DNA of 64,000 nucleotides from Alphaproteobacteria bacterium (lineage in GTDB: Bacteria > Pseudomonadota > Alphaproteobacteria > UBA828), in NCBI GenBank assembly GCA_963667785.2, contig CAXXMU010000008.1:1-64000 (forward strand), read 5' to 3'. The notes under the pieces were generated by a model. That model did no database searches. It saw nothing but the letters and a program-made list of their open reading frames with translations, and was not told where the DNA came from. The position numbers and the translations under genes were made by a program. This document shows positions 8,400 through 42,198 of the stretch, in pieces. Positions within the stretch are counted from its first letter, which is position 1; each line of letters opens with the position of its first letter.

Positions 8400-8882
8400 T
8401 CAGCGCTTCGAGAACTGGAAGCTGCGCCGTGCCTTGCGCTTGCCGTACTTCTTGCGCTCCACGACGCGGCTGTCGCGGGTGAGGAAACCGCCGGACTTGA
8501 GCATCTTGCGGAGCGTCGGCTCGCGCGCCGCGAGCGCCCGGCTGATGCCGTGCCTGAGCGCGCCGGCCTGGCCCGAGAGGCCACCGCCCTTGACGGTGCA
8601 GATGACGTCGTACTGCGTGCGGCGGCCGACCAGCTCCGCCGGCTGGTTGATGATCATCCGCAGCGCCGGGCGCGCGAAGTAGTCCTCCACCGAGCGCTTG
8701 TTGACCGTGATCGTTCCGATGCCGGGCCTGAGCCAGACCCGCGCGACCGCGTCCTTGCGCTTGCCGGTCGAGTAGGTGCGGCCCATGCGGTCGATCTGCG
8801 GCTCGGGCTCGATCTCGACATCGGGCCTCGCGACCTCGCCGAGCTCGGCAAGGCTGGTCAGTGTCTTCGCCTCGTCAGCCAC
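8400..8882 (-). CDS. rpsI: 30S ribosomal protein S9
   Basis: [16 protein letters not shown]-terminal VERKKYG...QFSKR. Confidence 0.98.
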
Positions 8883-9357
8883 GCAGCGCGCTCCTCCGGT
8901 TCTTCGGATTCATCGCGGCGACGTCGAGGGGCTCGGGCTGCTGCGCCTCGTGCGGATGGTCCGGGCCGGCGTAGACCTTGAGGTTCGCCATCTGCTGGCG
9001 GCCCAAGGGGCCCTTGGGAATCATCCGCTGCACCGCCTTAACCACCACCGTCTCCGGCCGCTTGCCGTCCAGGATGCGGGCCGCAGAGCGGGTCTTGAGC
9101 CCGCCGGGATAGCCGGTGTGGTGGTGGTAGAGCTTGTCTTCCCGCTTGCGTCCGGTGAGCCGCACCTTGCCCGCGTTGACGATGATGATGTTGTCGCCGC
9201 AGTCCATGTGCGGGGTGTAGCTCGGCTTGTGCTTGCCGCGCAGGCGCATCGCCACGACGCTGGCGAGCCGGCCGAGGACCACGTCTTCCGCGTCAACCAG
9301 CATCCACTTCTTCTCGATGGTGGCGGGCGTGGCCGAGAAGGTCTTCATTGCACTCAC
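8875..9357 (-). CDS. rplM: 50S ribosomal protein L13 (start may be ATG at 9348)
   Basis: [38 protein letters not shown]. Confidence 0.98.
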
Positions 9358-9423
9358 GACGACAGGATTTGATGTGACTGCGCGCGGGCTTGCCCGGCGA
9401 TCGCCGGCCCGCGCGACGGCCGG

Positions 9424-9451
9424 AGTATGCCACAGGATCGGCCCCAGTCAA
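9424..9451 (-). promoter_or_regulatory. Putative sigma70 promoter for rplM-rpsI
   Basis: Minus strand TTGACT-N16-CATACT. Confidence 0.55.
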
Positions 9452-9572
9452 CGGCGGCGTTCCTCCGGTGCGCGCTTGCGTCTCTCCTGCTTTGACCGGA
9501 GAATGCCGCATGGTGCCGGGGAAGCGGCGGGGGCCGCCGCGGCCCGGCGCGGTCAGCGTGCGGGAGGCCGGA

Positions 9573-11072
9573 ATGTCCGCGATGCTCGAGCGCTCCGACT
9601 GGTACGATATCGCGCGGGATACCAACTGGACGCCCTCCTACGTCGAGCGGGACGAGCTCTTCCCGCCCGAGATGGGCGATCCCTACGATATCCCGCTCGC
9701 GGAATGGGAGACCTTCGACGAGCCCTACAAGGTCTCGTACCGCGAATACGTGAACATCCAGCGCGAGAAGGATTCGGCGGCCTATTCGGTGAAGGCGGCG
9801 CTGGCGCGGTCGAAGTTCTACGACAAGGCGGACGAGGGCTGGGCCAGCGTGCTCAAGCTGCACTACGGCGCGGTGGCGCTCACCGAGTATCAGGCCTGCC
9901 AGTTCCAGGCGCGGATGTCGCGCTTCGGCCCGTCGCCGGCGATGCGCAACATGTCGGTCTACGGCATGCTCGACGAGCTGCGGCACACCCAGCTTCAGCT
10001 CTTCTTCCCGCACGAGCTGGTGCACCTGGACCGCCAGTACGACTGGGCGCACGAGGCCCAGCACTCAAAGAACTGGGCGGTGCTCGGCGGCCGCCACGCG
10101 ATGGACGACATCATGATGACCCGCGACGCGATCACGTCGTCGGTGATGGTCTCCTTCGCGTTCGAGACGGCGCTCACCAACCTGCAGATGATCGGCCTCT
10201 CGACCGATGCCGCCAACATGGGCGATCACACCTTCGCCAACCTCATCACCAGCATCCAGTCCGACGAGGCCCGCCACGCCCAGCTCGGCACGCCCACCAT
10301 CGAGATCATGATCCGCAACGGCCGCAAGAAGGAAGCGCAGCAGGCCATGGACATCGCGCTCTGGCGCGTGTGGCGGCTCTTCTCGATCACCGTCGGCATC
10401 CCGATGGACTACTACATCCCGCTCGAGCAGCGGCACATGTCCTTCAAGGAGTTCATGCACGAGTGGGTGATCAACCAGTGGGAGCGGCAGGTGCAGGACC
10501 TTGGCCTGGAGCGGCCGTGGTACTGGGACATCTTCCTCCTCGACATCGACAACCACCATCACTGCCAGCAGGGCGGCATATGGTCCTGGCGGCCGACGGT
10601 GTGGTGGAACCCGCCGGGCGCGGTCGGGCCCGATGAGCGCGCCTGGCTCGAGGAGAAGTATCCCGGCTGGAACGAGAGCTACGGCTCCTACTGGGACGTG
10701 ATCACCAACAACCTGCTCCAGGGGCACGAGGAGAAGACCCACCCGCAGTGCATCCCGATCATCTGCAACATGTGCCAGATCCCGATCTCGCACCGGCCGG
10801 GCCCCGAGTGGGGCGCGCGGGCCTATCAGCGCGAGTACGGCGAGCGGCGCTACAACTTCTGCACCGAGGTGTGCCGCTGGATCTTCGATACCGACCCGGA
10901 GCGCTACAAGGACCACGAGACCATCGTGGACCGCATGTATTCCGGCGAGATCGACCCGCCGACGCTGGAGAACGTGCTCACCTACATGGGCATCGGCGTC
11001 ATCAGCGAGGGCGGCCGCGACGGCCACGACTACGGCTGGGTCGAGGGTTTCCGGGCGCAGGCGGCGGAATAG
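9573..11072 (+). CDS. tmoA: Soluble di-iron monooxygenase hydroxylase alpha subunit (toluene/alkene monooxygenase group; TmoA/TouA-like) with C-terminal YHS-like domain
   Basis: N-terminus DWYDIARDTNWTPSYV, di-iron motifs DELRH and DEARH, FET..TN, WLEEKYPGW; GGGAGG RBS before ATG 9573. Confidence 0.93.
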   Translation: MSAMLERSDWYDIARDTNWTPSYVERDELFPPEMGDPYDIPLAEWETFDEPYKVSYREYVNIQREKDSAAYSVKAALARSKFYDKADEGWASVLKLHYGAVALTEYQACQFQARMSRFGPSPAMRNMSVYGMLDELRHTQLQLFFPHELVHLDRQYDWAHEAQHSKNWAVLGGRHAMDDIMMTRDAITSSVMVSFAFETALTNLQMIGLSTDAANMGDHTFANLITSIQSDEARHAQLGTPTIEIMIRNGRKKEAQQAMDIALWRVWRLFSITVGIPMDYYIPLEQRHMSFKEFMHEWVINQWERQVQDLGLERPWYWDIFLLDIDNHHHCQQGGIWSWRPTVWWNPPGAVGPDERAWLEEKYPGWNESYGSYWDVITNNLLQGHEEKTHPQCIPIICNMCQIPISHRPGPEWGARAYQREYGERRYNFCTEVCRWIFDTDPERYKDHETIVDRMYSGEIDPPTLENVLTYMGIGVISEGGRDGHDYGWVEGFRAQAAE

Positions 11073-11105
11073 CCGGGCGACACACACCTCGCTGTCGAGA
11101 GCGGC

Positions 11106-11369
11106 ATGAGCGCGTTCCCCATCCTCTCGCGCTTCCAGCAGGACGCGCACATCAAGACGGTCGAGATCGAGCCCGGCCAGACCATGGACGAGGTGGCGGC
11201 GACCTGCGCCTTCCACTCGATCGGCCTTCACGTGGCGGACAAGCCGGGCAGGACGCTCCGCGTGCGGCCGACCACCGAGGACGATTCGGCCCCGCCCTGG
11301 CCGCGCGATCTCACCGCGCAGGAAGCCGGGATCGAGTTCTACGACTGCATCGACATCTACTTCGAGTAA
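11106..11369 (+). CDS. tmoB: Monooxygenase hydroxylase gamma subunit (TmoB-like)
   Basis: 87 aa, MSAFPI.S.F..D, TMDEVAA..A.HSIG..V; second position in the cluster. Confidence 0.88.
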   Translation: MSAFPILSRFQQDAHIKTVEIEPGQTMDEVAATCAFHSIGLHVADKPGRTLRVRPTTEDDSAPPWPRDLTAQEAGIEFYDCIDIYFE

Positions 11370-11413
11370 CCCCAGCCCGGGCCGGCTCGGCCACGGGGAG
11401 GAGCGATCGATAC

Positions 11414-11749
11414 ATGGCGTTCAAGAAGGCCTGCACGCTGGACGATATCTGGGAAGGCGACATGGAGACCTTCGAGGTGGACGGCACCGAGGTGCTGCTG
11501 GTCCACGTCAAGGACGAGGGCATCTTCGCGCTCCAGGCGCAGTGCCCGCATCAGGAGGTCGACCTCGTCGACGGCGATCTCGACGGCCGGGTGCTGACCT
11601 GCATGATGCATCTCTGGGAGTTCGACGTGGTGGCGGGCAAGGGGGTGAACCCCTCCCATGCGGAGATCGCCCAGTATCCGGTCAAGATCGACGGCGACGA
11701 CGTCTATGTCGATGTCGAGGGCATCGAGCCCAAGCATGCCCAGCCCTAG
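11414..11749 (+). CDS. tmoC: Rieske [2Fe-2S] ferredoxin (TmoC-like)
   Basis: MAFKKACTLDDIWEGDM, CPH and CMMH ligands, GKGVNP; GGAGGAG RBS. Confidence 0.93.
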   Translation: MAFKKACTLDDIWEGDMETFEVDGTEVLLVHVKDEGIFALQAQCPHQEVDLVDGDLDGRVLTCMMHLWEFDVVAGKGVNPSHAEIAQYPVKIDGDDVYVDVEGIEPKHAQP

Positions 11750-11787
11750 CCCAGATTTTCGCCACGGGCGCGGCGGAGGAGGCGGCG

Positions 11788-12093
11788 ATGAGCGGTGATG
11801 GCGTGGCGCGCAACAATGCGGTCGGCCCGGTGCTGCGCGCGGGCGAGGTTGCCGACGCCGTGGTCGAGGCCCTGCAGGAGGACAACCCCGGCAAGGAGTT
11901 CACGGTCGAGGATCGCGTGGCCTACGTCCGGGCCGAGACCGAGGGCGAGTGCGTGGTGCGGGCCGAGACCGTCTCGCGGGTGCTCGGCCGGCCGTTCCGC
12001 ATCGCCGAGCTCGAGGTGAATCTCACCTCCTTCTCGGGCCGGATCGAGACCACCGACGACACCATGCGCTTCTACTTCGAGAAGCGGCTGTAG
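11788..12093 (+). CDS. tmoD: Monooxygenase effector/coupling protein (TmoD/MmoB-DmpM family)
   Basis: NAVGPVLRAGE, EDNPGK, DRVAYVR, LGRPF, SFSGRIE. Confidence 0.92.
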   Translation: MSGDGVARNNAVGPVLRAGEVADAVVEALQEDNPGKEFTVEDRVAYVRAETEGECVVRAETVSRVLGRPFRIAELEVNLTSFSGRIETTDDTMRFYFEKRL

Positions 12094-12140
12094 CGCGGTA
12101 TCGGGGCAAGGCGTTGGCGCGTGAGGGCGACGGCGGCCCG

Positions 12141-12413
12141 GTGCAGGCCGCGATCCGGCGCAAGCTGAGCGAGGCGCTCGCGCCGACCCGCCTCGACATC
12201 GTGGACGACTCGGCGCGCCATGCCGGCCATGTCGGCGCCAGGCCAGAAGGCGAGACCCACTTCAACGTCGAGATCGTGTCTACGCGCTTCGCAGGCCTGT
12301 CCCGCGTCGCCCGGCAGCGGCTCGTCTACGGCGTCCTCGCCGACGAGCTCCGCACGGACGTCCACGCGCTCGCGCTCAAGACCGCCACGCCGGAAGAGGA
12401 CGGCGGCGGTTAG
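12141..12413 (+). CDS. bolA: BolA family protein (alternative start TTG 12114)
   Basis: DDSARHAGH, ETHF, FAGLSRVARQRLVY, VHALAL. Confidence 0.9.
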   Translation: MQAAIRRKLSEALAPTRLDIVDDSARHAGHVGARPEGETHFNVEIVSTRFAGLSRVARQRLVYGVLADELRTDVHALALKTATPEEDGGG

Positions 12414-12641
12414 AGCAAATTCTGACCGGACGGGGTCGCGTCCGGTTGTCGCACGCTCCCCCGTTCGCATGCTGTGCGGCTGAAGATTCCCCCACCTCAC
12501 CCCGGCCCTCTCCACCCCCGGGGGCGGAGAGGGAGAGAAGGCGGCGCCGTCACGTTCCCCCTCCGCCTTTGGGGGAGGGGGACAGGGGGAGGTGGGAGTC
12601 GTTCGGCTTGTCGTGACCCGGTACGGTCGGATACTGCACTA
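12411..12641. mobile_element. MITE-like palindromic repeat, family A copy 1 (~231 bp)
   Basis: Imperfect ~30-bp terminal inverted repeats (TAGAGCA...TGCACTA), internal CCTCACCCCGGCCCTCTCC...GGAGAGGG hairpins; near-identical core at 18330-18561. Confidence 0.8.
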
Positions 12642-12653
12642 TCTAGCCTGGGC

Positions 12654-13586
12654 TCAGCCTGCGGCCATCAGTGCTTCGACATGGGTTGCGACGCTCCTGC
12701 CGAGCGCCCGCAGGTCGTAGCCGCCTTCGAGGGTCGAGACGACGCGGCCCGCGCAGGACTCGCCCGCGAGCCGGGTGAGCTCCGTCGTGATCCACGCATA
12801 GTCCTCCTCGAGAAGCTCGAGGTTCGCCAGCGGATCGTCCCGGTGCGCGTCGAAGCCGGCCGAGATCAGGATTAGCTCCGGCCGATGCGCGCGGAGCGCC
12901 GGCAGCAGGCGGCTCTCCATCGCGTCGCGGAAGCCGGCGGACCCCGTGCCTGCCGAGAGCGGCGCGTTGACGATGTTGCCCACGCCCGTCTCGGATGCTG
13001 CGCCCGTTCCCGGATAGAGCGGCGACTGGTGGGTCGAGCCGAAGAAGAGATCGCCGTCGCGTTCGAACGCGGCCTGGGTGCCGTTGCCGTGATGGACGTC
13101 GAAATCGACCACGGCGATGCGCGTGAGCCCGTGGGCGCGCCTGGCCCGCTCGGCGCCGATCACCACGTTGTTGAAGAGGCAGAAGCCCATCGGCCGGCGC
13201 GGCTCGGCATGGTGACCGGGAGGGCGCACCGCGCAGAAGGCGTTGTCCGCCTCGCCGCCGACCACCGCATCCACCGCGGCTGCCACCGCGCCGGCCGCGC
13301 GCTGCGCCGCCTCGCCCGAGGCGGGCGACATCACCGTGTCCGCGTCGATCGCCACCCGTCCGTCGTCCGGTACGTGGGCGAGGATGGAGTCCACCAGGCT
13401 CCTCTCGTGCGCCCAGGCGAGCATGTCGGGCGTGCCGGGCGGCGCCTCGCGGCGCTCCAGGCCCTCGAAGGCGTCGGCGGCCAGCGCGTCCTCGATCGCC
13501 TGCAGCCGCGTGCCGGCCTCCGGATGGCGCGCGCCGGGGTCGTGGGCGGCGCACACGGGATGGCTAAAATGGAGCGTCTTCGCCAC
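12654..13586 (-). CDS. Histone deacetylase family amidohydrolase
   Basis: HPE, RPPGHHA, GFCLFNN, DFDVHHGNGT, SAGFDAH, LEGGY; GTG start. Confidence 0.93.
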   Translation of the reverse strand: MAKTLHFSHPVCAAHDPGARHPEAGTRLQAIEDALAADAFEGLERREAPPGTPDMLAWAHERSLVDSILAHVPDDGRVAIDADTVMSPASGEAAQRAAGAVAAAVDAVVGGEADNAFCAVRPPGHHAEPRRPMGFCLFNNVVIGAERARRAHGLTRIAVVDFDVHHGNGTQAAFERDGDLFFGSTHQSPLYPGTGAASETGVGNIVNAPLSAGTGSAGFRDAMESRLLPALRAHRPELILISAGFDAHRDDPLANLELLEEDYAWITTELTRLAGESCAGRVVSTLEGGYDLRALGRSVATHVEALMAAG

Positions 13587-13725
13587 GGCTTCTTCCCCTT
13601 TGCACGAGGGTAGCACGCCAGTGGCCGGGGCGTGGAGGCGCCATCCTGCCGCTTCCCGTGCATTGGGGCTGGACGCGCGCCCGAATATGGCCACATTGGC
13701 GTCTGAGGATTCGATGGAGAGACCG

Positions 13726-15111
<1,386 letters not shown>

Positions 15112-15171
15112 TCGCGGACGGGCGCCGCTGCGCCGCCGCGCCCCGCTCCGCCCCGCGTCCGGCAGTACCGC

Positions 15172-15939
15172 CTAGGCGGTGATGCGCATCCGGATGGGGC
15201 CCTGGGCGCGCTGGTTGATGAGCTGATCCAGGTGGGCGTTGCCGCTGGCGTCGATGTCGCCCGCCGCTCCCTGCCAGAGGATCGCGCCCTCGTGCAGCAT
15301 GGCGAGCCGGTCGAAGCCGCGCCGCGCGACCGCCATGTCGCTCGTTACCGTGAGCGCGGTGGCGCCGCTCCGCTCGATCGCGCTGCGGATAAGCGCAACG
15401 ATCGTGCCGGTCAGGATCGGATCGAGGCCGGCCGTCGGGTCGTCGAGCACGAGGAAGCGCGGCTCGGCGGCGATCGCGCGCCCGAGCGCGACGCGCTTCT
15501 GCATGCCGCCGGAAAGCTCGGCCGGCGAGAGGTCGGCGACATCGGACTTCAGGCCGACGGAGGCCAGGACCTCGAGCGCGCGGCCCCGCGCAGGCCGTCG
15601 GCCCATCCCCTGGCCGTGGATCAGGGTGAAGGCCACGTTCTCCCAGACGCTCAGGCTGTCGAAGAGCGCGTTCTGCTGGAACAGTACGCCGACGTCGCGC
15701 ATCAGGCGCTCGAGCCCGCCCGCATCGAGGTCCGCGATGTCGGCATCGCCGAAGCGGACTTGGCCGGCATCCATCGGCAGCAGGCCGAGCAGGCACTTCA
15801 GCAGGACCGACTTGCCGCTCGATGACGGGCCGACCAGGACGGTCGACCGGCCTCCCGGCACGTCGAGGTCGGCGCCTCGCAGCACGGCCTTTCCGTCGAA
15901 GCGCTTGACCACGCCGCGCGCCGTGACCGTAATGCTCAT
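15172..15939 (-). CDS. MlaF/Ttg2A-like ABC ATP-binding protein with degenerate catalytic motifs
   Basis: GPSSSGKS, LFQQNALFDSL, LSGGMQKRVAL; Walker B reads LDDPT and H-loop reads VTSD. Confidence 0.85.
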   Translation of the reverse strand: MSITVTARGVVKRFDGKAVLRGADLDVPGGRSTVLVGPSSSGKSVLLKCLLGLLPMDAGQVRFGDADIADLDAGGLERLMRDVGVLFQQNALFDSLSVWENVAFTLIHGQGMGRRPARGRALEVLASVGLKSDVADLSPAELSGGMQKRVALGRAIAAEPRFLVLDDPTAGLDPILTGTIVALIRSAIERSGATALTVTSDMAVARRGFDRLAMLHEGAILWQGAAGDIDASGNAHLDQLINQRAQGPIRMRITA

Positions 15940-27767: not shown

Positions 27768-28721
27768 TCACGCGGGCATGGTCTCGTTACGGCGCTGGGC
27801 GCGCTGCATCAGGATCAGGCCGATCACCGCGAACACGCTGAGGCAGATCAGGATGAAGAGCCCCAGCGCCGCCACGTAGGCCCACTCAAGATCCTTGAAG
27901 GTCAGGTCGAGGATGTAGACGGAGATCGACTTGGTCGCCGTTCCCGGCCCGCCGCCGGTCATCACGTAGAGGATGTCGAAGATCTTGATGCACTCGATGG
28001 TGCGGATGACCAGCGCGATGATCATCACCATCTTCATGCGCGGCAGCACGATGCGCCAGAAGCGCTGCCACGCGTTCGCGCCGAGCAGCGTCGCCGCCTT
28101 CATCTGGTCCTCGGGCACGCCCACCATGCCGGCGAGCAGGATGAGGAACATGAGCGGCGTCCACTGCCAGATGTCGGCGATCATCACGGAGATCATCGCC
28201 AGCGTGCCGTCGGCGAGCCACAGGATCTCGACCTCGGTGCCGCTGATCCGGCTGAGCAGGTCGTTGATCGGGCCGGTGCTCTGGAACAGCATGAAGAACA
28301 TGTAGCCGGCGACCGCGGGCACGATCATCATCGGCATCAGCATGATCGAGTAGAAGACCCGCTTGCCCACGAACTTCTCGGCGAAGAGGATGGCGAGCCC
28401 GAGCCCCAGCAGGAACTCGATGGGCACGCAGACGGCGACGATCAGGAAGGTGCGCCCGATCGAGCCCCACAGCTTCCTGTCGTCGAAGAGGTCGCCGTAG
28501 TTGCCGAAGAGGTTGGCGCTCTCGTAGGCCATGTACCAGGGCGTGCCGTCGAGCGGCCCCCACCAGGTGAAGCTCACGTAGAGCTGCATCACCAGCGGGA
28601 AGGCGACGATGAAGAGCAGCAGAAGCTGGGCCGGCAGCGTCAGGTAGAGCCCGAGCACCTTGCCCTGGCGTTCCAGCGGCGTGAGCACGGGCCGCCTGCC
28701 CTCTGCCGCCGCCTTGCTCAT
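27768..28721 (-). CDS. Carbohydrate ABC transporter permease (MalF-type)
   Basis: DIWQWTPLMFLILLAG, EAA-like loop MKAATLLGA, MTGGGPG. Confidence 0.92.
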   Translation of the reverse strand: MSKAAAEGRRPVLTPLERQGKVLGLYLTLPAQLLLLFIVAFPLVMQLYVSFTWWGPLDGTPWYMAYESANLFGNYGDLFDDRKLWGSIGRTFLIVAVCVPIEFLLGLGLAILFAEKFVGKRVFYSIMLMPMMIVPAVAGYMFFMLFQSTGPINDLLSRISGTEVEILWLADGTLAMISVMIADIWQWTPLMFLILLAGMVGVPEDQMKAATLLGANAWQRFWRIVLPRMKMVMIIALVIRTIECIKIFDILYVMTGGGPGTATKSISVYILDLTFKDLEWAYVAALGLFILICLSVFAVIGLILMQRAQRRNETMPA

Positions 28722-29578
28722 TGCTTGAGCGCTCCGAAGGTGAGGCCGCGCACCAGGTACTTCTGGATCGCGATGCCGAAGACCACGGGCGGCACCACGG
28801 CGATGAGGCCGAGCGCGGCCTTGGCGCCGTACATCTGCCCCGTCATCGCCGAGGACAGCGAGTTCATGTAGACCGGAATCGTCACCCATTCCTTGCGGGT
28901 CAGCAGCAGGGCGATGACGTAGTCGCTCCAGTTGAGGATGAAGACGAAGAGCGTGGTGCTGGCGAGCGCCGCCTTCACCATCGGCAGCGTGATCTTCCAG
29001 AACACGCGGAACCAGCTGCAGCCCTCGACGAGGGCGGCCTCCTCGATTTCGCGCGGCACTTCATCGAAGAAGGTCTTCATCAGCCAGAAGGCGAAGGGCA
29101 GCGTGACGATGCCGTAGATGAGCGAGAGCCCCCACCAGGAATCCATGGCGCCGATGAAGGCCCACATGATCATCACCGGGATCATCACCGCGAGCGGCGG
29201 GAACAGCCGGAGCTGGAGGACGCCCAAGGGCAGGTTGCGCCCGACCATGAAGCGGGAGACCGCATAGGCGCCCATGGTGCCGGCGATGACCGCGATCGCC
29301 GTGCCGAGCAGCGCGGTGACGAGGCTGGAGATGATCGGCTTGGTGGCGGTCCGCTCGTGGGTGATGGAGTAGGCTTCCGTCTCGCCCGTGAAGATGTATT
29401 CGAAGTTGGCGAAGGTGGGCTCGCGCGGCAGCCAGTGCAGGTCGCCTGCGGTGGACACCCACTCGGTGTGCGGCTTGAAGGCCATCGTGGCCATCCACAC
29501 CACCGGCAGCAGCGCGAGGCCCACGGCGACGAGGATCAGCGCGTAGCGCCAGAGGTGTGAGGTGTACGCTCTTTGCAT
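28718..29578 (-). CDS. Carbohydrate ABC transporter permease (MalG-type)
   Basis: EIEEAALVEG, FILNWSD, QKYLVRGLTFGA. Confidence 0.92.
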   Translation of the reverse strand: MQRAYTSHLWRYALILVAVGLALLPVVWMATMAFKPHTEWVSTAGDLHWLPREPTFANFEYIFTGETEAYSITHERTATKPIISSLVTALLGTAIAVIAGTMGAYAVSRFMVGRNLPLGVLQLRLFPPLAVMIPVMIMWAFIGAMDSWWGLSLIYGIVTLPFAFWLMKTFFDEVPREIEEAALVEGCSWFRVFWKITLPMVKAALASTTLFVFILNWSDYVIALLLTRKEWVTIPVYMNSLSSAMTGQMYGAKAALGLIAVVPPVVFGIAIQKYLVRGLTFGALKQ

Positions 29579-29722
29579 CGCTACTCAGGCCGCGGTGCCG
29601 GGTCGGTCACGGTGCGCATGGGCGACCGCTCGCCGCCTTGTACCGAGCGCGGCCGGGAGGGGAGCGGGCGGCGCGCACACGCTGCGCACCGCCCGCGACG
29701 CACCGAATCGGCGCTTTCCGGA

Positions 29723-31300
29723 TCAGGCCTGGTCGATGACCGTCGACCAGCCGGACTTCGCGGCGTTGATAAGCTCGATCATCTTGTCCTCGCCCTTCTT
29801 CCTGAGGTGCTTGCGCCAGGAATCGGCGGTGTTCTCCATCGCCTCCTGCGACGAGATCTCGCCGGCGAGCGCGGCCACGAGGTTCTCGCTCAGCGTGTTG
29901 TGCATCGCGAACTGGCCGGGGATGGCGATGGTCGGCACCGCCCGCGCCACCGTGCCCTCGATGATCGGCACGTGGTAGGGCTTGTAGGACTGGATGACCA
30001 GCGGATCCTGGAAGTTGGCGAGCTGGAAGGGATCGAAGAAGCCGCCCGGGTTGCCGGTCAGCAGGCTGAAGATCCGCGTGGACCCCGACCACTGCAGCCA
30101 GAGATACGCCGCTTCCTGGTACTCGCTCTGGGTCGAGACGCCACCATTGTTGCCGAGATAGATGGTCGAGCGCCGCACCAGGTCGTTGCCGAACTGGTGG
30201 CCCGGCGGCAGGAACGATCCCATCTTGCCGCCGATCGCGGTTTCCGAATTGTCGAGGAACTTCGGGCAGTTGGAGAAGGTGCCGAGCATGAACGAGTTGC
30301 CGTTGGCCATGTTCCCGTAATACTCGGGCCAGCTCCAGCCGAGGCCGCCCTTGTCCGACCAGTCGAGGCTCTTCACGTGCTCCTCGGTGGCCTGGATGCC
30401 CACATCGGTGTCGATGAGCGGGTTGCCCTCGTCGTCGAACAGGTGCTGGTTCGGATTGTCCTTGCTGACGTAGCGGTTGTACCAGGTGCTGATGCCCCAG
30501 AAGTGGCTCATCATGTTGCCGTTGCCGAGCATCCCCTTGGAGGTGAAGAACTCGGCCAACTGGTCGCATTCCGCCCAGGTGCGTGGCGGCCCGATCTCCC
30601 AGCCGTACTTGTCGCCGAACTCCTTCTGGTTCGCCGGGTCCTCGGTGAGATCCCTGCGATAGACCCAGACCTGGGCGTCGCCGTCGTAGCAGACCGAGCG
30701 CGGCTCGCCGCCGTACTTGTAGAGCATGTCGTAGGACTCGGGCGTCGGCATGCCGCGCTCCGGGTCGGCGAAGTCGGCGCCGTGCTTCTCGATCCACTCG
30801 CCGAGCGGCGCGATGCCGTTCGCCTCCGACAGATCGCCCATGGCCGCGTAGCCGAAGGTGTAGACGTCATAGGCGGCGGACCCGGTGGTGACGTCCTGGA
30901 TCACCTTGTTGAACTGCTCTTCCGGCGAGACGGGGATGAACTCGAGCTTGACCCCGGTCTCGGCCTCCCAGATCGACTGCAGCGTCGGGCCGTCCGGCGG
31001 CCAGGGGTTGGTGAAGTGGCCGATGGCGCCGTCGGTCATCAGGATGTTGAGTTTCTCGGGCGCCTTGCCTTCCGCCTTGAGCGCGCGGATGCCCTCGACC
31101 GCGCGGCCTTCGGACATGGTCTCGTTGTACTGGTAGCGCTCCGCCCCGTCGAAGCCGGTGGGGCCGCCGGTCATCCCCGGCGCGAGGCCCGCCGCCCGTG
31201 CCGGGCGGATGAACTTGGGAGCGATTCCGATCGGCGAGGTGAGCACCACGCCTGCGGCGCCCGCTTTCAGCGCCTGCCGCCGGGTAATCTTGATCGCCAT
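29723..31300 (-). CDS. ABC extracellular solute-binding protein with Tat signal
   Basis: TRRQALK twin-Arg signal, WEAETGVK, YRRDL, PPRTW. Confidence 0.9.
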   Translation of the reverse strand: MAIKITRRQALKAGAAGVVLTSPIGIAPKFIRPARAAGLAPGMTGGPTGFDGAERYQYNETMSEGRAVEGIRALKAEGKAPEKLNILMTDGAIGHFTNPWPPDGPTLQSIWEAETGVKLEFIPVSPEEQFNKVIQDVTTGSAAYDVYTFGYAAMGDLSEANGIAPLGEWIEKHGADFADPERGMPTPESYDMLYKYGGEPRSVCYDGDAQVWVYRRDLTEDPANQKEFGDKYGWEIGPPRTWAECDQLAEFFTSKGMLGNGNMMSHFWGISTWYNRYVSKDNPNQHLFDDEGNPLIDTDVGIQATEEHVKSLDWSDKGGLGWSWPEYYGNMANGNSFMLGTFSNCPKFLDNSETAIGGKMGSFLPPGHQFGNDLVRRSTIYLGNNGGVSTQSEYQEAAYLWLQWSGSTRIFSLLTGNPGGFFDPFQLANFQDPLVIQSYKPYHVPIIEGTVARAVPTIAIPGQFAMHNTLSENLVAALAGEISSQEAMENTADSWRKHLRKKGEDKMIELINAAKSGWSTVIDQA

Positions 31301-37999: not shown

Positions 38000-38202
38000 G
38001 AAGGGAGGGCGGGTATGACGGCCAGGGGTGCCGTTCGAGCCGTGGTGACCTCGTATGGTCGGATCGTGCTCCAGGGCGGCTGCGGGCCGGTGACAAGTCG
38101 CGCGCGCTGCGGGATCGCTCGTTGTTGGACGATCGTGTTTTCGATGCTAGCGTGCCGACAAATGCCGACCGATTCCTTGTAGACCTCCAGAGGAAAAGCG
38201 TC

Positions 38203-38613
38203 ATGGGTCCTGGTGCAGGAATAAGAAGTGCTGTCGTCTTGACGCTTCTTCTATTTGTTTTTGCATGCGCGCCCGCCTATCAGCCCCTGACGGAGAGAAA
38301 CTCGACATTGACCCAGGGGAACGTTCAGCTGAATCTTCAGGTGGGCAAGACGACCAAGGCCCACGTGCTCGAGACATTCGGCTCGCCCAACATCACCACC
38401 AGAGACGGAAGCGGTCGCGAGGTCTGGACGTATCAGAGAAGCGCCCAAGTAACCCAGTCGTCATCGGAGTCCGGTTACTGGTCCATATTGATCGTGGGTC
38501 AATCCTTCGACAGTTCCGGGCTCGAGACGTCCACTAGAATGATCACGCTTATCATAAAATTCGATAGCGACGACGTGGTCGTGGACTTCAGAAGCCAGAC
38601 GTCGGATTTCTAG
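38203..38613 (+). CDS. SmpA/OmlA(BamE)-like lipoprotein
   Basis: Hydrophobic signal ending VFAC, GKTTK..VLETFGSPN, REVWTY, IKFD...V; visibly AT-richer. Confidence 0.75.
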   Translation: MGPGAGIRSAVVLTLLLFVFACAPAYQPLTERNSTLTQGNVQLNLQVGKTTKAHVLETFGSPNITTRDGSGREVWTYQRSAQVTQSSSESGYWSILIVGQSFDSSGLETSTRMITLIIKFDSDDVVVDFRSQTSDF

Positions 38614-38626
38614 AGAGACCGTAGCA

Positions 38627-39103
38627 ATGAGATATCGCCTTCTGCTCCCGTTCCTTCTGGCGGCGGCCGTGTCGGCGTGCGCCCCGGCGATGCCGCCCCC
38701 GATCCAGACTCCCCTGGCCATTCAGAGCATCCAGAGCAGGCAGTACGAGGCCAGCAGGGAAGTCGTGTTTCCCAGCGTGATCTCGATGTTTCAGGACCTG
38801 GGGTACATCATTACGAACGCCGACATGGCGACGGGGCTGATCTCGGCGGAAAGTGCCGCACAGAGCAGCGACGACTTCGAGAGTTTCCTGATGGGGCAGA
38901 CGAAAGTCTCCCAGACCAAGGCCACGGGATTCGTGGAAACGATCGGCACCATGACGCGGCTGAGGCTGAATTTCGTCGAAATAAACCAGACCTCGACCGA
39001 CTATGGACAAACCGACCGCCACGACACGCCGATTATGAACCCGGGGCTCTATCAGAACGCATTCAGCCGGGTCGAGAACGGGATTTTCCTGCGCTCGGAG
39101 TGA
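38627..39103 (+). CDS. Hypothetical lipoprotein
   Basis: Lipobox AVSAC; IQSRQYE, FQDLGYII...D..TGLI; co-oriented with the upstream lipoprotein. Confidence 0.8.
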   Translation: MRYRLLLPFLLAAAVSACAPAMPPPIQTPLAIQSIQSRQYEASREVVFPSVISMFQDLGYIITNADMATGLISAESAAQSSDDFESFLMGQTKVSQTKATGFVETIGTMTRLRLNFVEINQTSTDYGQTDRHDTPIMNPGLYQNAFSRVENGIFLRSE

Positions 39104-39272
39104 GGCGAGCGCCGCCGACCGATACGCGTATCAGGCCGGCCTAAACGCCGCCTCTCCATCCTGCCCCCGGCGCGCGGGCGCCCGGAGAAGGGAACGGGCG
39201 CCGCGTGCCTCAGCCGGATGAGGGCAGAGAGGCGGCCCCGCGGGCTCCGCGGGGCCGCACGCCGTGCACGGA

Positions 39273-40316
39273 TCAGCCGTAGCGGTAGGGCCGGCCCGCC
39301 TTCTCCATGTCCGCGTTGTACTGCTTGAAGATCTCGACCACCTTGGCCTTGGTCTCGGATTCGGCCGCGATCTCGTCCCAGAAGACGCGCGCGGCGGCCT
39401 CCACCTGGGCCCATTCCTCGTCGGGGATCGAGGTCAGCTCCATCTTGGTGCCGTGGACGCGCAGGCTCGCCTCGCCGCCCCAGTACCACCACTGGCGATA
39501 GTAGTGGGACTGATCGCCGATGACCCGCAGAAGGGTCTGGAGATCCTCGGGAAGCTCGTTCCAGCGCTCCATGTTGGCGTAGAACGAGCCGATCCAGGCG
39601 CCGGAGATGTTGTTGGTGAGGAAGTAGTTGGTCACGTCGGCCCAGCCCACCGTGTAATCCTCGGTGATGCCCGACCAGGAGACGCCGTCGAGCTCGCCGG
39701 TCTGCACCGCGACCTCGATGTCCTCCCAGGGCAGCGTGACCGGAACCACGCCGAACTGGGTCAGGAAGCGGCCCGCGGTTGGGAAGGTGAAGACGCGCTT
39801 CCCCTCCAGGTCGGCGAGCGAGCGGATCGGGTCCTTGGTCGCGAAGTGGCAGGGATCCCAGGCGCCCGCCGAGATGTGCTTGATGCCGACCTTCTCGTAC
39901 TCCGCCGCCCAGATTTCGTTCAGGCCGTACTGGTTGAAGAGCACCGGCACGTCGAGCGAATAGCGCGAGGCGAACGGGAAGTAGCCGCCGAACACGGTGA
40001 CCTCGGTGGGCGAGGCCATCGAATCGTCGTCGGACTGCACCGCATCGATGGTGCCGCGCTGCATGGCGCGGAAGAGCTCGCCCGTCGGCACGATCTGGTC
40101 GGAATAGAAGAGCTCGATCTGCATGCGCTCGCCCGCGATCTTGTTGAACATGTCGATCGCGGGCTTGATCACGTGCTCGGCCAGCGCGGGCCCGGCATAG
40201 GTCTGCATCCGCCAGGTGATCTGCGCCTGCGCCACCGCGGGCGTCGTCAGGGCAGCACCGGCAGCGACGGCCGGTACGGCGGCCGCCGCCTTGAGGAGAT
40301 TGCGCCGTGTGGTCAT
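39273..40316 (-). CDS. TRAP transporter substrate-binding protein (DctP, TakP-like) with Tat signal
   Basis: TRRNLLK, WRMQTY, IRSLADLEGKR, QTGELDG. Confidence 0.92.
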   Translation of the reverse strand: MTTRRNLLKAAAAVPAVAAGAALTTPAVAQAQITWRMQTYAGPALAEHVIKPAIDMFNKIAGERMQIELFYSDQIVPTGELFRAMQRGTIDAVQSDDDSMASPTEVTVFGGYFPFASRYSLDVPVLFNQYGLNEIWAAEYEKVGIKHISAGAWDPCHFATKDPIRSLADLEGKRVFTFPTAGRFLTQFGVVPVTLPWEDIEVAVQTGELDGVSWSGITEDYTVGWADVTNYFLTNNISGAWIGSFYANMERWNELPEDLQTLLRVIGDQSHYYRQWWYWGGEASLRVHGTKMELTSIPDEEWAQVEAAARVFWDEIAAESETKAKVVEIFKQYNADMEKAGRPYRYG

Positions 40317-40363
40317 TGAGTCGTCTCCTTTCGGGTTGAGGCGAGAGAAAGCCCCGTTGCGTC

Positions 40364-41689
40364 TCAGTTGCCGTAGACATAGCCCGGAAACCACAGGGCG
40401 ATTTCCGGGAACACCATGATGATGACGAGTGCCACAATCATCACGCCGACGAAGGGAATGATGGAGCGATAAATGTCGCGCAAGGTTATTTCTGGAGGCG
40501 CCATGGCGCGCATGAGGAAGAGGTTGTAGCCGAAGGGCGGCGTCATGTAGGCGATTTGCGTGGTGATGGTGTAGAGGACGCCGTACCAGATCAGGTTGAA
40601 TCCCAACGCGTCGACGAGAGGGACATAGAGGGGGGCGACGATCACCAGCATCGCCGTGTCGTCGAGAAACGTTCCCATCACCAGGAACGAGAGCTGCATC
40701 AGCACGAGTACCATCCAGGGCGAGAGCCCCATCTGCTCGGTGAACACGTCCTCGATCGCGTGCGCGGCCCCCAGCCCGTCGAACACCGAGCCGAAGGCGA
40801 GCGCCGCCAGGATGATCCACATGAACATGCAGGTGATGCGGAGCGTGTTGCGTACCGAGTTCTCGAACACCTGCCTGGTCATGCGCCGGCGCACGATGGC
40901 GGCGAGGAAGGCGGCGAGCGCGCCGATGGCGGACGATTCGACCAGCGAGGTCGAGCCGCTGACGAAGGGCACGATCATCACCGCGTAGATGAAGAGCGGC
41001 AGCAGGCCGGCGCGGAGCAGCCGCATCTTTTCCGGCCAGGGCACGTCGCGCTCGGCCTTGGGCAGAACAGGGCCGAGACTGGGCGTGATCCAGCAGCGCA
41101 GCCAGATGTAGAGGACGAAGAGCCCGGCCATCATGAGCCCGGGGAAGATCCCCGCGAGCCAGAGCTGGCCCACGGGCTGGCGCGCGATCATGGCGTAGAG
41201 CACGAGCACCACCGAGGGCGGCACGAGGATGCCGAGCGAGCTTCCCGCCTGAATGACGCCGGTCACCATGCGCTTGTCGTAGTTGCGCTTGAGCAGCTCG
41301 GGCAGCGCGATGGTCGCGCCGATGGCCATGCCGGCGACGCTCAGCCCGTTCATCGCCGAGACCAGCACCATGAGCCCGATCGTGCCCACGGCAAGCCCGC
41401 CGGCCATGCCGCCCGTCCACACGTGGAACATGCGGTAGAGGTCGTCGGCGATCCTCGATTCCGAGAGCACGTAGCCCATGAAGATGAACATCGGCAGCGT
41501 GAGCAGCGGGTACCATTTCATGAGCTTCATGGCGGCGGCGAAGCCCAGGTCGTAACCGCCCCGGTCGCCCCAGAGGAGCAGCGCGGAAAGGACCGCGACG
41601 AAGCCGATCGCGGCGAAGACGCGCTGGCCCGTGGCCAGCATGAGCATCATCAGCGCGAACATCAGGACGGTGATCATCTCGTAGGACAT
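40364..41689 (-). CDS. TRAP transporter large permease (DctM)
   Basis: TLPMFIFMG, GSSLGILVPPS, MTPPFGYNLF. Confidence 0.93.
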   Translation of the reverse strand: MSYEMITVLMFALMMLMLATGQRVFAAIGFVAVLSALLLWGDRGGYDLGFAAAMKLMKWYPLLTLPMFIFMGYVLSESRIADDLYRMFHVWTGGMAGGLAVGTIGLMVLVSAMNGLSVAGMAIGATIALPELLKRNYDKRMVTGVIQAGSSLGILVPPSVVLVLYAMIARQPVGQLWLAGIFPGLMMAGLFVLYIWLRCWITPSLGPVLPKAERDVPWPEKMRLLRAGLLPLFIYAVMIVPFVSGSTSLVESSAIGALAAFLAAIVRRRMTRQVFENSVRNTLRITCMFMWIILAALAFGSVFDGLGAAHAIEDVFTEQMGLSPWMVLVLMQLSFLVMGTFLDDTAMLVIVAPLYVPLVDALGFNLIWYGVLYTITTQIAYMTPPFGYNLFLMRAMAPPEITLRDIYRSIIPFVGVMIVALVIIMVFPEIALWFPGYVYGN

Positions 41690-42198
41690 CACACCGCCTC
41701 GCCGCGAAGCCGCAGCACGTCCTTGAAGAACTCGGAGACCGCCTGGAAGATCATCAGGACGATGCCCGTGACCATGACCACCTTGACCGGCCAGAGATAG
41801 GGCCGCCAGGCGCTCGGGCTGCGCTCGCCGCCGTACTGGAAGCTGTAGATCGTGGAGTCGATTCCGCCCCAGAGAAGAACGGTGAGGTAGAAGAGCAGGA
41901 AGAACACCGTGAAGACGTCGAACCACGCCTTCCGGCGTGCGGACCAGGAGCCGTAGAACAGGTCCATCCGCACGTTCGCATCGGTTTGAACGGCGTAGGG
42001 GCCGCCCAGGATGTAATAGCCCACCATCGCGAACTGGGCCATTTCCAGGGTCCAGAGCGAAGGATTGAAGAACGTCTTCGAGAGCGACGACCAGAGCAGG
42101 ATCGCCATGATCGCGAACATGCCGTACATGATGGTGCGCCCGACACGGCGATTGACCGTGTCGACGACCAGGATGTAGGCGCGCATGGTGCCGGTCAC
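41689..42198 (-). CDS. TRAP transporter small permease (DctQ)
   Basis: Four TM helices, WTLEMAQ, NVRMDLFY, WPVK. Confidence 0.9.
   Translation of the reverse strand: MTGTMRAYILVVDTVNRRVGRTIMYGMFAIMAILLWSSLSKTFFNPSLWTLEMAQFAMVGYYILGGPYAVQTDANVRMDLFYGSWSARRKAWFDVFTVFFLLFYLTVLLWGGIDSTIYSFQYGGERSPSAWRPYLWPVKVVMVTGIVLMIFQAVSEFFKDVLRLRGEAV

Follow-up and report, generated by a model that had tools for sequence, protein, structure and literature searches.

Soluble di-iron monooxygenases (SDIMOs) of the toluene/alkene-monooxygenase (TMO) family, which are 'group 2' in older SDIMO schemes, include ToMO of Pseudomonas stutzeri OX1 (touABCDEF; 1t0q) and T4MO of P. mendocina KR1 (tmoABCDEF; 3dhg, 4wqm). 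According to the accessible text of a review, the family has six genes, encoding, in this order, the alpha subunit, the gamma subunit, a ferredoxin, a coupling protein, the beta subunit and a reductase (PMC11825192). In that text and in the accessible part of an operon-based survey, its members are described or mined as six-gene operons (PMC11825192, PMC13603553). isoABCDEF and other alkene/aromatic group 1 SDIMOs, which we compared by description only, belong to the same group and have the same canonical gene order in the available text of two sources (PMC11825192, PMC12917321). Here we describe tmoABCD, a locus at positions 9573-12093 of a 64,000-nt stretch of DNA (the first 64,000 positions of contig CAXXMU010000008.1, assembly GCA_963667785.2), hereafter called the window. 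By its sequence, the window enzyme classifies as a group 1 SDIMO of the TMO family, in the numbering of the accessible review text (PMC11825192). The same six protein types as in ToMO and T4MO are encoded in the genome, and the alpha-gamma-ferredoxin-effector order of the window is the same. In contrast to these systems and to isoABCDEF, the beta and reductase genes are outside the operon, at two other loci, and the host is a sponge-associated alphaproteobacterium rather than a pollutant degrader. We propose that a complete TMO-type enzyme is very probably assembled in trans from the three loci. Gene content, orthology, conservation and purifying selection are the observations from which we infer this assembly, the choice of the reductase and the sharing of the ferredoxin.

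The four genes of the window are co-directional and their reading frames are intact. tmoA (9573..11072, plus strand) encodes a hydroxylase alpha subunit of 499 aa (PF02332, E=3.3e-72, plus a YHS domain). It is followed by tmoB (11106..11369, plus strand), encoding a gamma subunit of 87 aa (PF06234, 2.1e-17), by tmoC (11414..11749, plus strand), encoding a Rieske [2Fe-2S] ferredoxin of 111 aa (PF00355, 8.5e-18) with a CPH...CMMH motif in its translation, and by tmoD (11788..12093, plus strand), encoding an effector of 101 aa (MmoB/DmpM, PF02406, 1.3e-30). The original prediction, made from this DNA alone, had proposed four intact genes for these proteins, and Pfam matches were obtained for all of them. 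It had also placed a ribosome-binding site before each gene. Purine-rich Shine-Dalgarno-like words are indeed read directly ahead of tmoA, tmoC and tmoD; the word ahead of tmoB is weaker. As had been predicted, the genes lie between rplM and bolA and have a host-like codon usage, with a third-position GC above 0.8, and gene-caller settings accept all four. Regional GC at tmoABCD is 0.667, slightly below that of the flanks (about 0.70-0.71). The genome comprises 4.09 Mb in 14 contigs at roughly 70% GC, and the window is part of a 132-kb contig, here C8.

The upstream boundary gene is rplM (8875..9357, minus strand), identified from its open reading frame and translation. The downstream boundary gene, bolA (12114..12413, plus strand; PF01722, 1e-30), is outside the enzyme and stands where tmoE would normally begin. 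The stop codon of tmoD is TAG (12091-12093) and bolA starts at TTG 12114 or GTG 12141. The gap of 20-47 nt is too small for a fifth gene. No remnant of tmoE is present between tmoD and bolA, and tblastn finds no beta piece in the corresponding loci of close relatives either. No match was obtained in the window by tblastn with beta and reductase queries. In a profile search of the whole genome, C8 has no second PF02332 gene besides tmoA and zero NAD_binding_1 (PF00175) matches. The close spacing of bolA and the absence of a beta or reductase gene from the window had both been predicted correctly.

tmoA aligns with TouA of ToMO (1t0q_A) over residues 3-495 (E=2.8e-201) and with TmoA of T4MO over the full length (2.7e-197). 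In the alignment to TouA, both E..EXXH di-iron ligand sets are kept (ALTE, LDELRH, FAFET, SDEARH). Two pocket positions differ from ToMO, I100 being replaced by V and E103 by T, in what we take to be the ToMO numbering. Thus, to judge from the genes alone, the TMO-family features are present: a di-iron alpha subunit, genes for alpha, beta and gamma, a Rieske ferredoxin and an MmoB/DmpM effector. The six-gene operon is not found, only the first four genes being contiguous; this difference is organisational, not biochemical.

A genome-wide search with PF02332 retrieved four genes: the C8 alpha, an alpha and a beta in a second cluster on contig C6, and an orphan beta on contig C2. The genome therefore has two alphas and two betas. 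TmoB-type gamma subunits and effectors are each present in two copies, one on C8 and one on C6. In the C6 cluster the order is alpha, gamma, effector, beta, with intergenic gaps too short for a ferredoxin gene. The orphan beta, hereafter tmoE (C2 32575-33573), is full length with 332 aa (PF02332, 5.9e-68) and matches TouE (1t0q_B) over residues 4-329 with E=7.2e-122. A GMC oxidoreductase gene is located 92 nt upstream and a thiolase gene 37 nt downstream, followed by enoyl-CoA hydratase and acyl-CoA dehydrogenase genes.

To place this gene, related loci were collected from species-representative genomes (loci and genomes are denoted L and G, respectively). The scan gave 50 related loci, 24 of them with an alpha 75-98% identical to that of the window, plus the end of one such cluster (L051). 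tmoE directly follows tmoD in 16 loci (alpha 75-92%), and this operonic tmoE is 59-81% identical to the C2 beta, or 77-81% in the nearer ABCDE relatives. Five loci have tmoABCD without a beta after tmoD (L011, L013, L014, L015, L026; alpha 95-98%), and four end too early to judge (L012, L022, L024, L034). In a maximum likelihood tree of 42 betas, this genome and four relatives have orphan betas that group in a single clade (support 100/98), whose sister group is the operonic tmoE of L016/L017/L018 (support 96/87). The C6 beta is placed elsewhere, adjoining an Arenicellales sequence. Because of its 59-81% identity to operonic tmoE and its nesting with operonic tmoE on the tree, the C2 gene is, on this phylogenetic evidence, the relocated fifth gene of the window operon.

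One may ask whether the C8 alpha and gamma subunits instead use the C6 beta, a single beta serving two alphas, the C2 beta having taken another role in an acyl-CoA operon. Alphas outnumber betas in other genomes of the family (G007; L030/L032), and the C2 beta appears to be co-transcribed with the beta-oxidation-type genes, given the thiolase gene 37 nt away. However, in this genome alphas and betas are equal in number. Moreover, the C2 beta is orthologous to the tmoE of ABCD operons, is only 56% identical to the C6 beta and aligns end to end with TouE. We consider such use of the C6 beta improbable. A beta-less hydroxylase is also unlikely. The original prediction had offered a reduced hydroxylase fed by a housekeeping reductase as one possibility; it is not supported, the orphan beta being an ortholog of operonic tmoE with a low dN/dS and conserved beside the same genes in 4/4 relatives. 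The other possibility offered, that beta and reductase are encoded elsewhere, agrees with the whole-genome profile search, which returned the full-length beta on C2 and a single TmoF-type reductase on C6. A beta common to several alpha cassettes, the idea put forward there, does not fit the present genome with its two alphas and two betas, although beta-less alpha-gamma cassettes do occur in G007 and L030/L032. Beta sharing is plausible in these relatives and is not needed in the present genome.

The relocation is conserved. Our family set contains 44 genomes; alpha matches were obtained in 39 of them and beta matches in 40. In 15/15 genus genomes with an alpha at least 95% identical to the window's, this one included, the tmoE ortholog (85-100% identical) is away from tmoABCD. 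tmoA and tmoE are on one contig in seven of the 15, about 26, 34, 64, 89, 121, 230 and 351 kb apart, and closed chromosomes are among the split genomes. tmoE is on another contig in the remaining eight, one of which (G034) is uninformative since its tmoABCD locus appears to stop at tmoD. By comparison, ABCDE is intact in three genus genomes with an alpha of 92-93% (G037, G044, G047). These and the other related marine and sponge alphaproteobacterial ABCDE(F) clusters (L016-L033) are orthologous to the window genes (alpha 75-93%, beta 59-82% identical) and most also have no reductase gene. They differ in that tmoE is still found after tmoD; it is gone in the subclade of the window. On both sides of the split the surroundings are kept. 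The order tmoD-bolA-deacetylase-DegP is found in 5/5 informative close loci (L011, L013, L014, L015, L026), in agreement with the synteny check suggested in the original prediction. In the 4/4 relatives fetched, the genes after the orphan tmoE are again those for thiolase, hydratase and dehydrogenase (89-94% identical). The gene upstream of tmoA varies, and among close relatives rplM is there only in L014. The ancestral site could not be fixed from intact-operon genomes G049 and G050, in which neither bolA nor the ECH/ACAD genes adjoin rplM or the thiolase gene.

These comparisons bear on the possibility of an assembly or binning artefact, in which tmoEF was lost from the assembly at about 12100 or another organism in the bin is the source of the C2 beta. 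Such an artefact could be suspected from the 14 contigs, the estimated contamination of 6.6% and the location of tmoABCD and tmoE on different contigs. Against this, bolA follows tmoD within 20-47 nt inside a 132-kb contig, and the tmoD-bolA junction recurs in all five informative close relatives, including two closed chromosomes (L014 and L015, titled 'chromosome: 1' in their records). In addition, tmoA and the orphan tmoE share a contig in seven related genomes, 26-351 kb apart. An artefact is therefore extremely improbable, and the assembly error that the original prediction had itself named as a danger finds no support. Of the phrase 'truncated or split' used there, the second term stands and the first does not: judged by its sequence comparisons, tmoABCD is a split operon conserved in a genus subclade, not a truncation. 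Removal of tmoE in the ancestor of this subclade would best explain the distribution.

Two further observations concern the additional clusters of these relatives. In L014 (4891-7868, the same stretch as L082:5736-8713), an extra beta-gamma-alpha cluster is found on the opposite strand between rplM and tmoABCD; its alpha and beta are each 69% identical, and genes for a ferredoxin and an effector are missing from it. In G040 (C2:1855061-1855612), only a C-terminal piece of the second-cluster beta is present (residues 146-331), with no second alpha. This piece may be the remnant of a lost C6-type cluster.

Selection was estimated against close relatives as pairwise dN/dS with the Nei-Gojobori method (NG86), a rough measure here as third positions of the genome are about 90% GC. 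The values are 0.045-0.11 for tmoA, 0.06-0.31 for tmoB, 0.19-0.26 for tmoC, 0.06-0.19 for tmoD and 0.11-0.30 for the orphan tmoE. To the extent that codon comparisons tell, all five genes are under purifying selection. Public runs holding the stretch are mostly labelled sponge metagenomes. tmoA-D are covered, at 88-99% likeness, by contigs assembled from four sponge RNA libraries (3 studies); a single contig of 2,223 nt reaches from within the 3' part of tmoA to the tmoD stop. Such contigs indicate presence only and lend weak support to expression, since RNA libraries can hold DNA and depth cannot rank expression. Region 9399-9555 has near-zero cover in these contigs, which may merely reflect intergenic divergence.

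A different view of the locus would be that tmoABCD is a decaying remnant, that only the C6 cluster works and that the C2 beta is a leftover. Two canonical genes are missing from the operon, as this view would have it. Yet the frames are intact, the iron ligands are conserved, dN/dS is low for the five genes and 15 species-level genomes have the same arrangement. tmoABCD also contains the genome's single gene for a TmoC-type ferredoxin, and RNA-library contigs cover tmoA-D. Decay is thus very unlikely, in line with the original prediction, which had seen none.

The remaining component is the reductase. One NADH oxidoreductase with a plant-type 2Fe-2S domain and an FNR-like part was found. This TmoF-type protein of 332 aa is encoded on C6 (796390-797385), unlinked to the other genes, and has Fer2, FAD_binding_6 and NAD_binding_1 domains. 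It would be the partner of TmoC. No other NAD_binding_1 protein was found in the genome, and the best Fer2 match of the genome is its own N-terminus; no ferredoxin reductase of the Reductase_C type was found genome-wide. Among solved structures, it is closest to the ferredoxin reductase of carbazole dioxygenase (2.5e-52) and to TmoF of T4MO (4wqm, 1.4e-50). An alpha/beta-hydrolase gene precedes the reductase gene and the neighbourhood is unrelated to SDIMO genes. Orthologs with 72-82% identity exist in all other 20 genus genomes, as a single copy in 18 of them (a second match occurs in G043 and G047), and beside SDIMO genes in none of the 20.

Most clusters of the family have no reductase gene. 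A reductase gene directly after tmoE is found only in G009, G010 and G011. Of the 13 related loci whose sequence extends far enough beyond tmoE, 2 have a reductase gene there (L023, L025) and 11 do not. No Fer2-FNR or Reductase_C protein was detected with Pfam among the 39 proteins flanking L016, L018, L019, L020, L030 and L033, which are ABC transporters, luciferase-like monooxygenases, a PRISE-like reductase, a 2OG oxygenase and regulators. The same search was negative for 27 proteins flanking three G007 loci and L084, L085 and L088.

The ferredoxin is also distributed sparingly. The window tmoC encodes the only TmoC-type ferredoxin of the genome, the next best Rieske matches being 33% identical. 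Family genomes with a match have one TmoC-type ferredoxin each (58-92% identical), always in an ABCD-type cluster. A second ferredoxin (42-44%) occurs in four family genomes, beside a third hydroxylase set in the three where an alpha was found (G034, G042, G043). Every other ferredoxin match in the family is at most 33% identical. No ferredoxin match is found near the C6-type cluster in the single-contig genomes G030, G037, G044 and G048. Outside the family, a ferredoxin gene is present in relatives of the C6-type cluster (L044, L056, L057, L059), and its absence from the C6 cluster here is therefore a loss. Because the C6 cluster has neither a ferredoxin nor a reductase gene, it would draw on the same TmoC and reductase as the window enzyme. 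The typical count in the family is two alphas, two betas, one ferredoxin and one reductase. Thus, one electron-transfer chain, with shared ferredoxin and reductase, probably serves two hydroxylases. The sharing of a reductase suggested in the original prediction looks right in that a single TmoF-type copy accompanies a single TmoC-type ferredoxin; it apparently extends to the ferredoxin. The logic of several terminal oxygenases on one apparent electron chain is the same as in sphingomonads, where scattered genes for Rieske aromatic-ring dioxygenases are served by one ferredoxin and one reductase. Those enzymes belong to another superfamily, and here it is the two large subunits of one hydroxylase that are encoded apart.

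In the enzyme that we propose, the window would supply the alpha and gamma subunits, the ferredoxin and the effector of a working four-component monooxygenase of the toluene/alkene-monooxygenase family whose operon has been split. tmoE, relocated to C2 with its own promoter-like site, would head the row of thiolase, enoyl-CoA hydratase and acyl-CoA dehydrogenase genes. An (alpha-beta-gamma)2 hydroxylase would be assembled in trans from TmoA and TmoB of C8 and TmoE of C2. Electrons would pass from NADH to the TmoF-type reductase of C6, then to the Rieske ferredoxin TmoC and to the di-iron site, TmoD acting as the effector. The C6 hydroxylase (alpha-gamma-effector-beta) would use the same TmoC and reductase.

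Several points weigh against this proposal. The pairing of the C8 alpha with the C2 beta is drawn from sequence. The three loci belong to a 14-contig assembly with 6.6% estimated contamination; only the analogy with relatives whose chromosomes are closed links them. The dN/dS values are rough at about 90% GC in third positions, and the RNA contigs derive from relatives rather than from stranded reads of this strain. The weakest link is the reductase, as the candidate on C6 was chosen on architecture and uniqueness alone. With the operonic reductases of relatives it shares 33-41% identity. G007, G008 and G027 have the monooxygenase and no match to the C6 reductase at E<=1e-15; therefore, another reductase can evidently serve. 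Finally, electrons could alternatively be carried by a Rieske protein of 114 aa on C6 (33% identical), whose gene adjoins a desaturase-like one.

From these last points a variant of our proposal can be built, in which the operon is split as described and another reductase, perhaps with the other small Rieske protein, feeds the hydroxylases. The three genomes without a homolog, the modest identity to operonic reductases, the second small Rieske protein and the position of the C6 reductase gene behind an alpha/beta-hydrolase gene, away from SDIMO genes, all fit such a variant. Conversely, the C6 protein is the only NAD_binding_1 protein found and the best Fer2 match, no Reductase_C-type protein was found in the genome, its architecture is that of TmoF (match to 4wqm at 1.4e-50), and an ortholog is kept in all other 20 genus genomes. 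We regard a different reductase as rather unlikely but quite conceivable, and retain the C6 protein as the candidate.

Both units of the hydroxylase have a promoter-like site. Upstream of tmoA, CTTGCGT-N17-GAGAAT (9475..9504, plus strand) lies inside a conserved block of about 105 nt, which is kept in 7/7 aligned loci despite differing upstream genes. The site upstream of the orphan tmoE in this genome is CTTGCGC-N17-GACAAT; CTTGCG and GACAAT are kept there in 4/4 relatives at about the same spacing (spacers not counted). The pattern CTTGCG[CT]-N16-18-GA[CG]AAT, built from the tmoA and tmoE sites themselves, has 3 sites in the 4.09-Mb genome and 0 in each of three shuffles. The third site, at about 448578 on C6, is just upstream of a gene for a 558-aa protein resembling ETF-ubiquinone oxidoreductase, named by eye from its translation. 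These alignments indicate only that the tmoA and orphan tmoE units each carry a conserved, similar promoter-like element. Because the pattern was derived from the two sites, co-regulation does not follow. A scan of 9200-12700 for sigma-70 promoters and terminators was uninformative, with one promoter-like match on the minus strand and zero terminators. A sigma-54-like word seen by eye upstream of tmoA was dropped, as it is not conserved in relatives.

Other rearrangements are seen in the family. In G007, which belongs to another genus, ABCD is followed by a gene for a PRISE-like reductase, and a separate contig carries the tmoE ortholog (77%), located after an FMN-dependent dehydrogenase gene. 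This genome has 3 alphas and 2 betas, with a lone alpha-gamma (A'-B') pair at a third locus. The relocation of its beta looks independent of that in the window clade, because intact-ABCDE genomes lie between G007 and this clade and because the destination differs. The PRISE-like gene, for a short-chain reductase of 351 aa, is located directly after the monooxygenase genes at L019:11508-12560, L020:11484-12536 and L092:6494-7546. It follows tmoE in L019 and L020 and tmoD in G007, where tmoE is gone. The PRISE-like reductase may be a pathway partner. In two related metagenome-assembled loci, L030 and L032, the order is A-B-A'-B'-C-D-E, and A' and B' form one uninterrupted frame of about 612 aa (L030:7104-8942; L032:2369-4171). 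If the frame is read as it stands, it would encode a TMO hydroxylase protein in which alpha and gamma are naturally fused.

A wider picture can be drawn tentatively from these cases, although we doubt that all of it will hold. TMO-type enzymes of the family could form a hub-and-spoke network, in which two or three hydroxylases would depend on a single Rieske ferredoxin and a single unlinked reductase. Beta would have been excised at least twice independently, and some alpha-gamma cassettes or fusions would have no beta of their own. Under its own promoter, the relocated tmoE could be a separately controlled, limiting and exchangeable part, tying assembly of the hydroxylase to the downstream acyl-CoA pathway. 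Such a network would amount to a natural modular swapping of specificity.

A search of the literature, which most subscription journals and supplements fell outside, retrieved no description of a split TMO operon or of such enzymes in sponge symbionts. The gain is organisational and comparative: a new arrangement of a known enzyme family, with no new chemistry. Operon-based screens would score these genomes as incomplete, whereas a genus-level clade keeps a selected and apparently complete enzyme with its parts at three loci, which are the loci to combine for expression work. The arrangement suggests that a di-iron hydroxylase can have the genes of its two large subunits far from each other, and that a single electron-transfer chain may supply two or three hydroxylases, in a family whose clusters mostly have no reductase gene. 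A further implication is an oxygenase function, still unexplored, that is near-universal in this sponge-associated family (alpha in 39/44 genomes).

Some observations were made around the other loci. At C6 1041008-1043212, a membrane desaturase-like gene with histidine boxes is found near the gene of the stand-alone Rieske protein of 114 aa, 33% identical to TmoC. The two genes could represent a separate oxygenase system or, possibly, an alternative electron carrier. The C6 SDIMO cluster is flanked by convergent genes for hydantoinase/oxoprolinase A and B. Genes for an NMT1-type binding protein and a permease are located upstream on the same strand. These transport and hydantoinase/oxoprolinase genes (L006:4001-8195, 12498-15323) are possible clues to the substrate of the C6 cluster. 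Within the window, GC dips to 0.63-0.66 at 28001-30000 and 38001-42000, and is 0.69-0.75 in most of the remainder.

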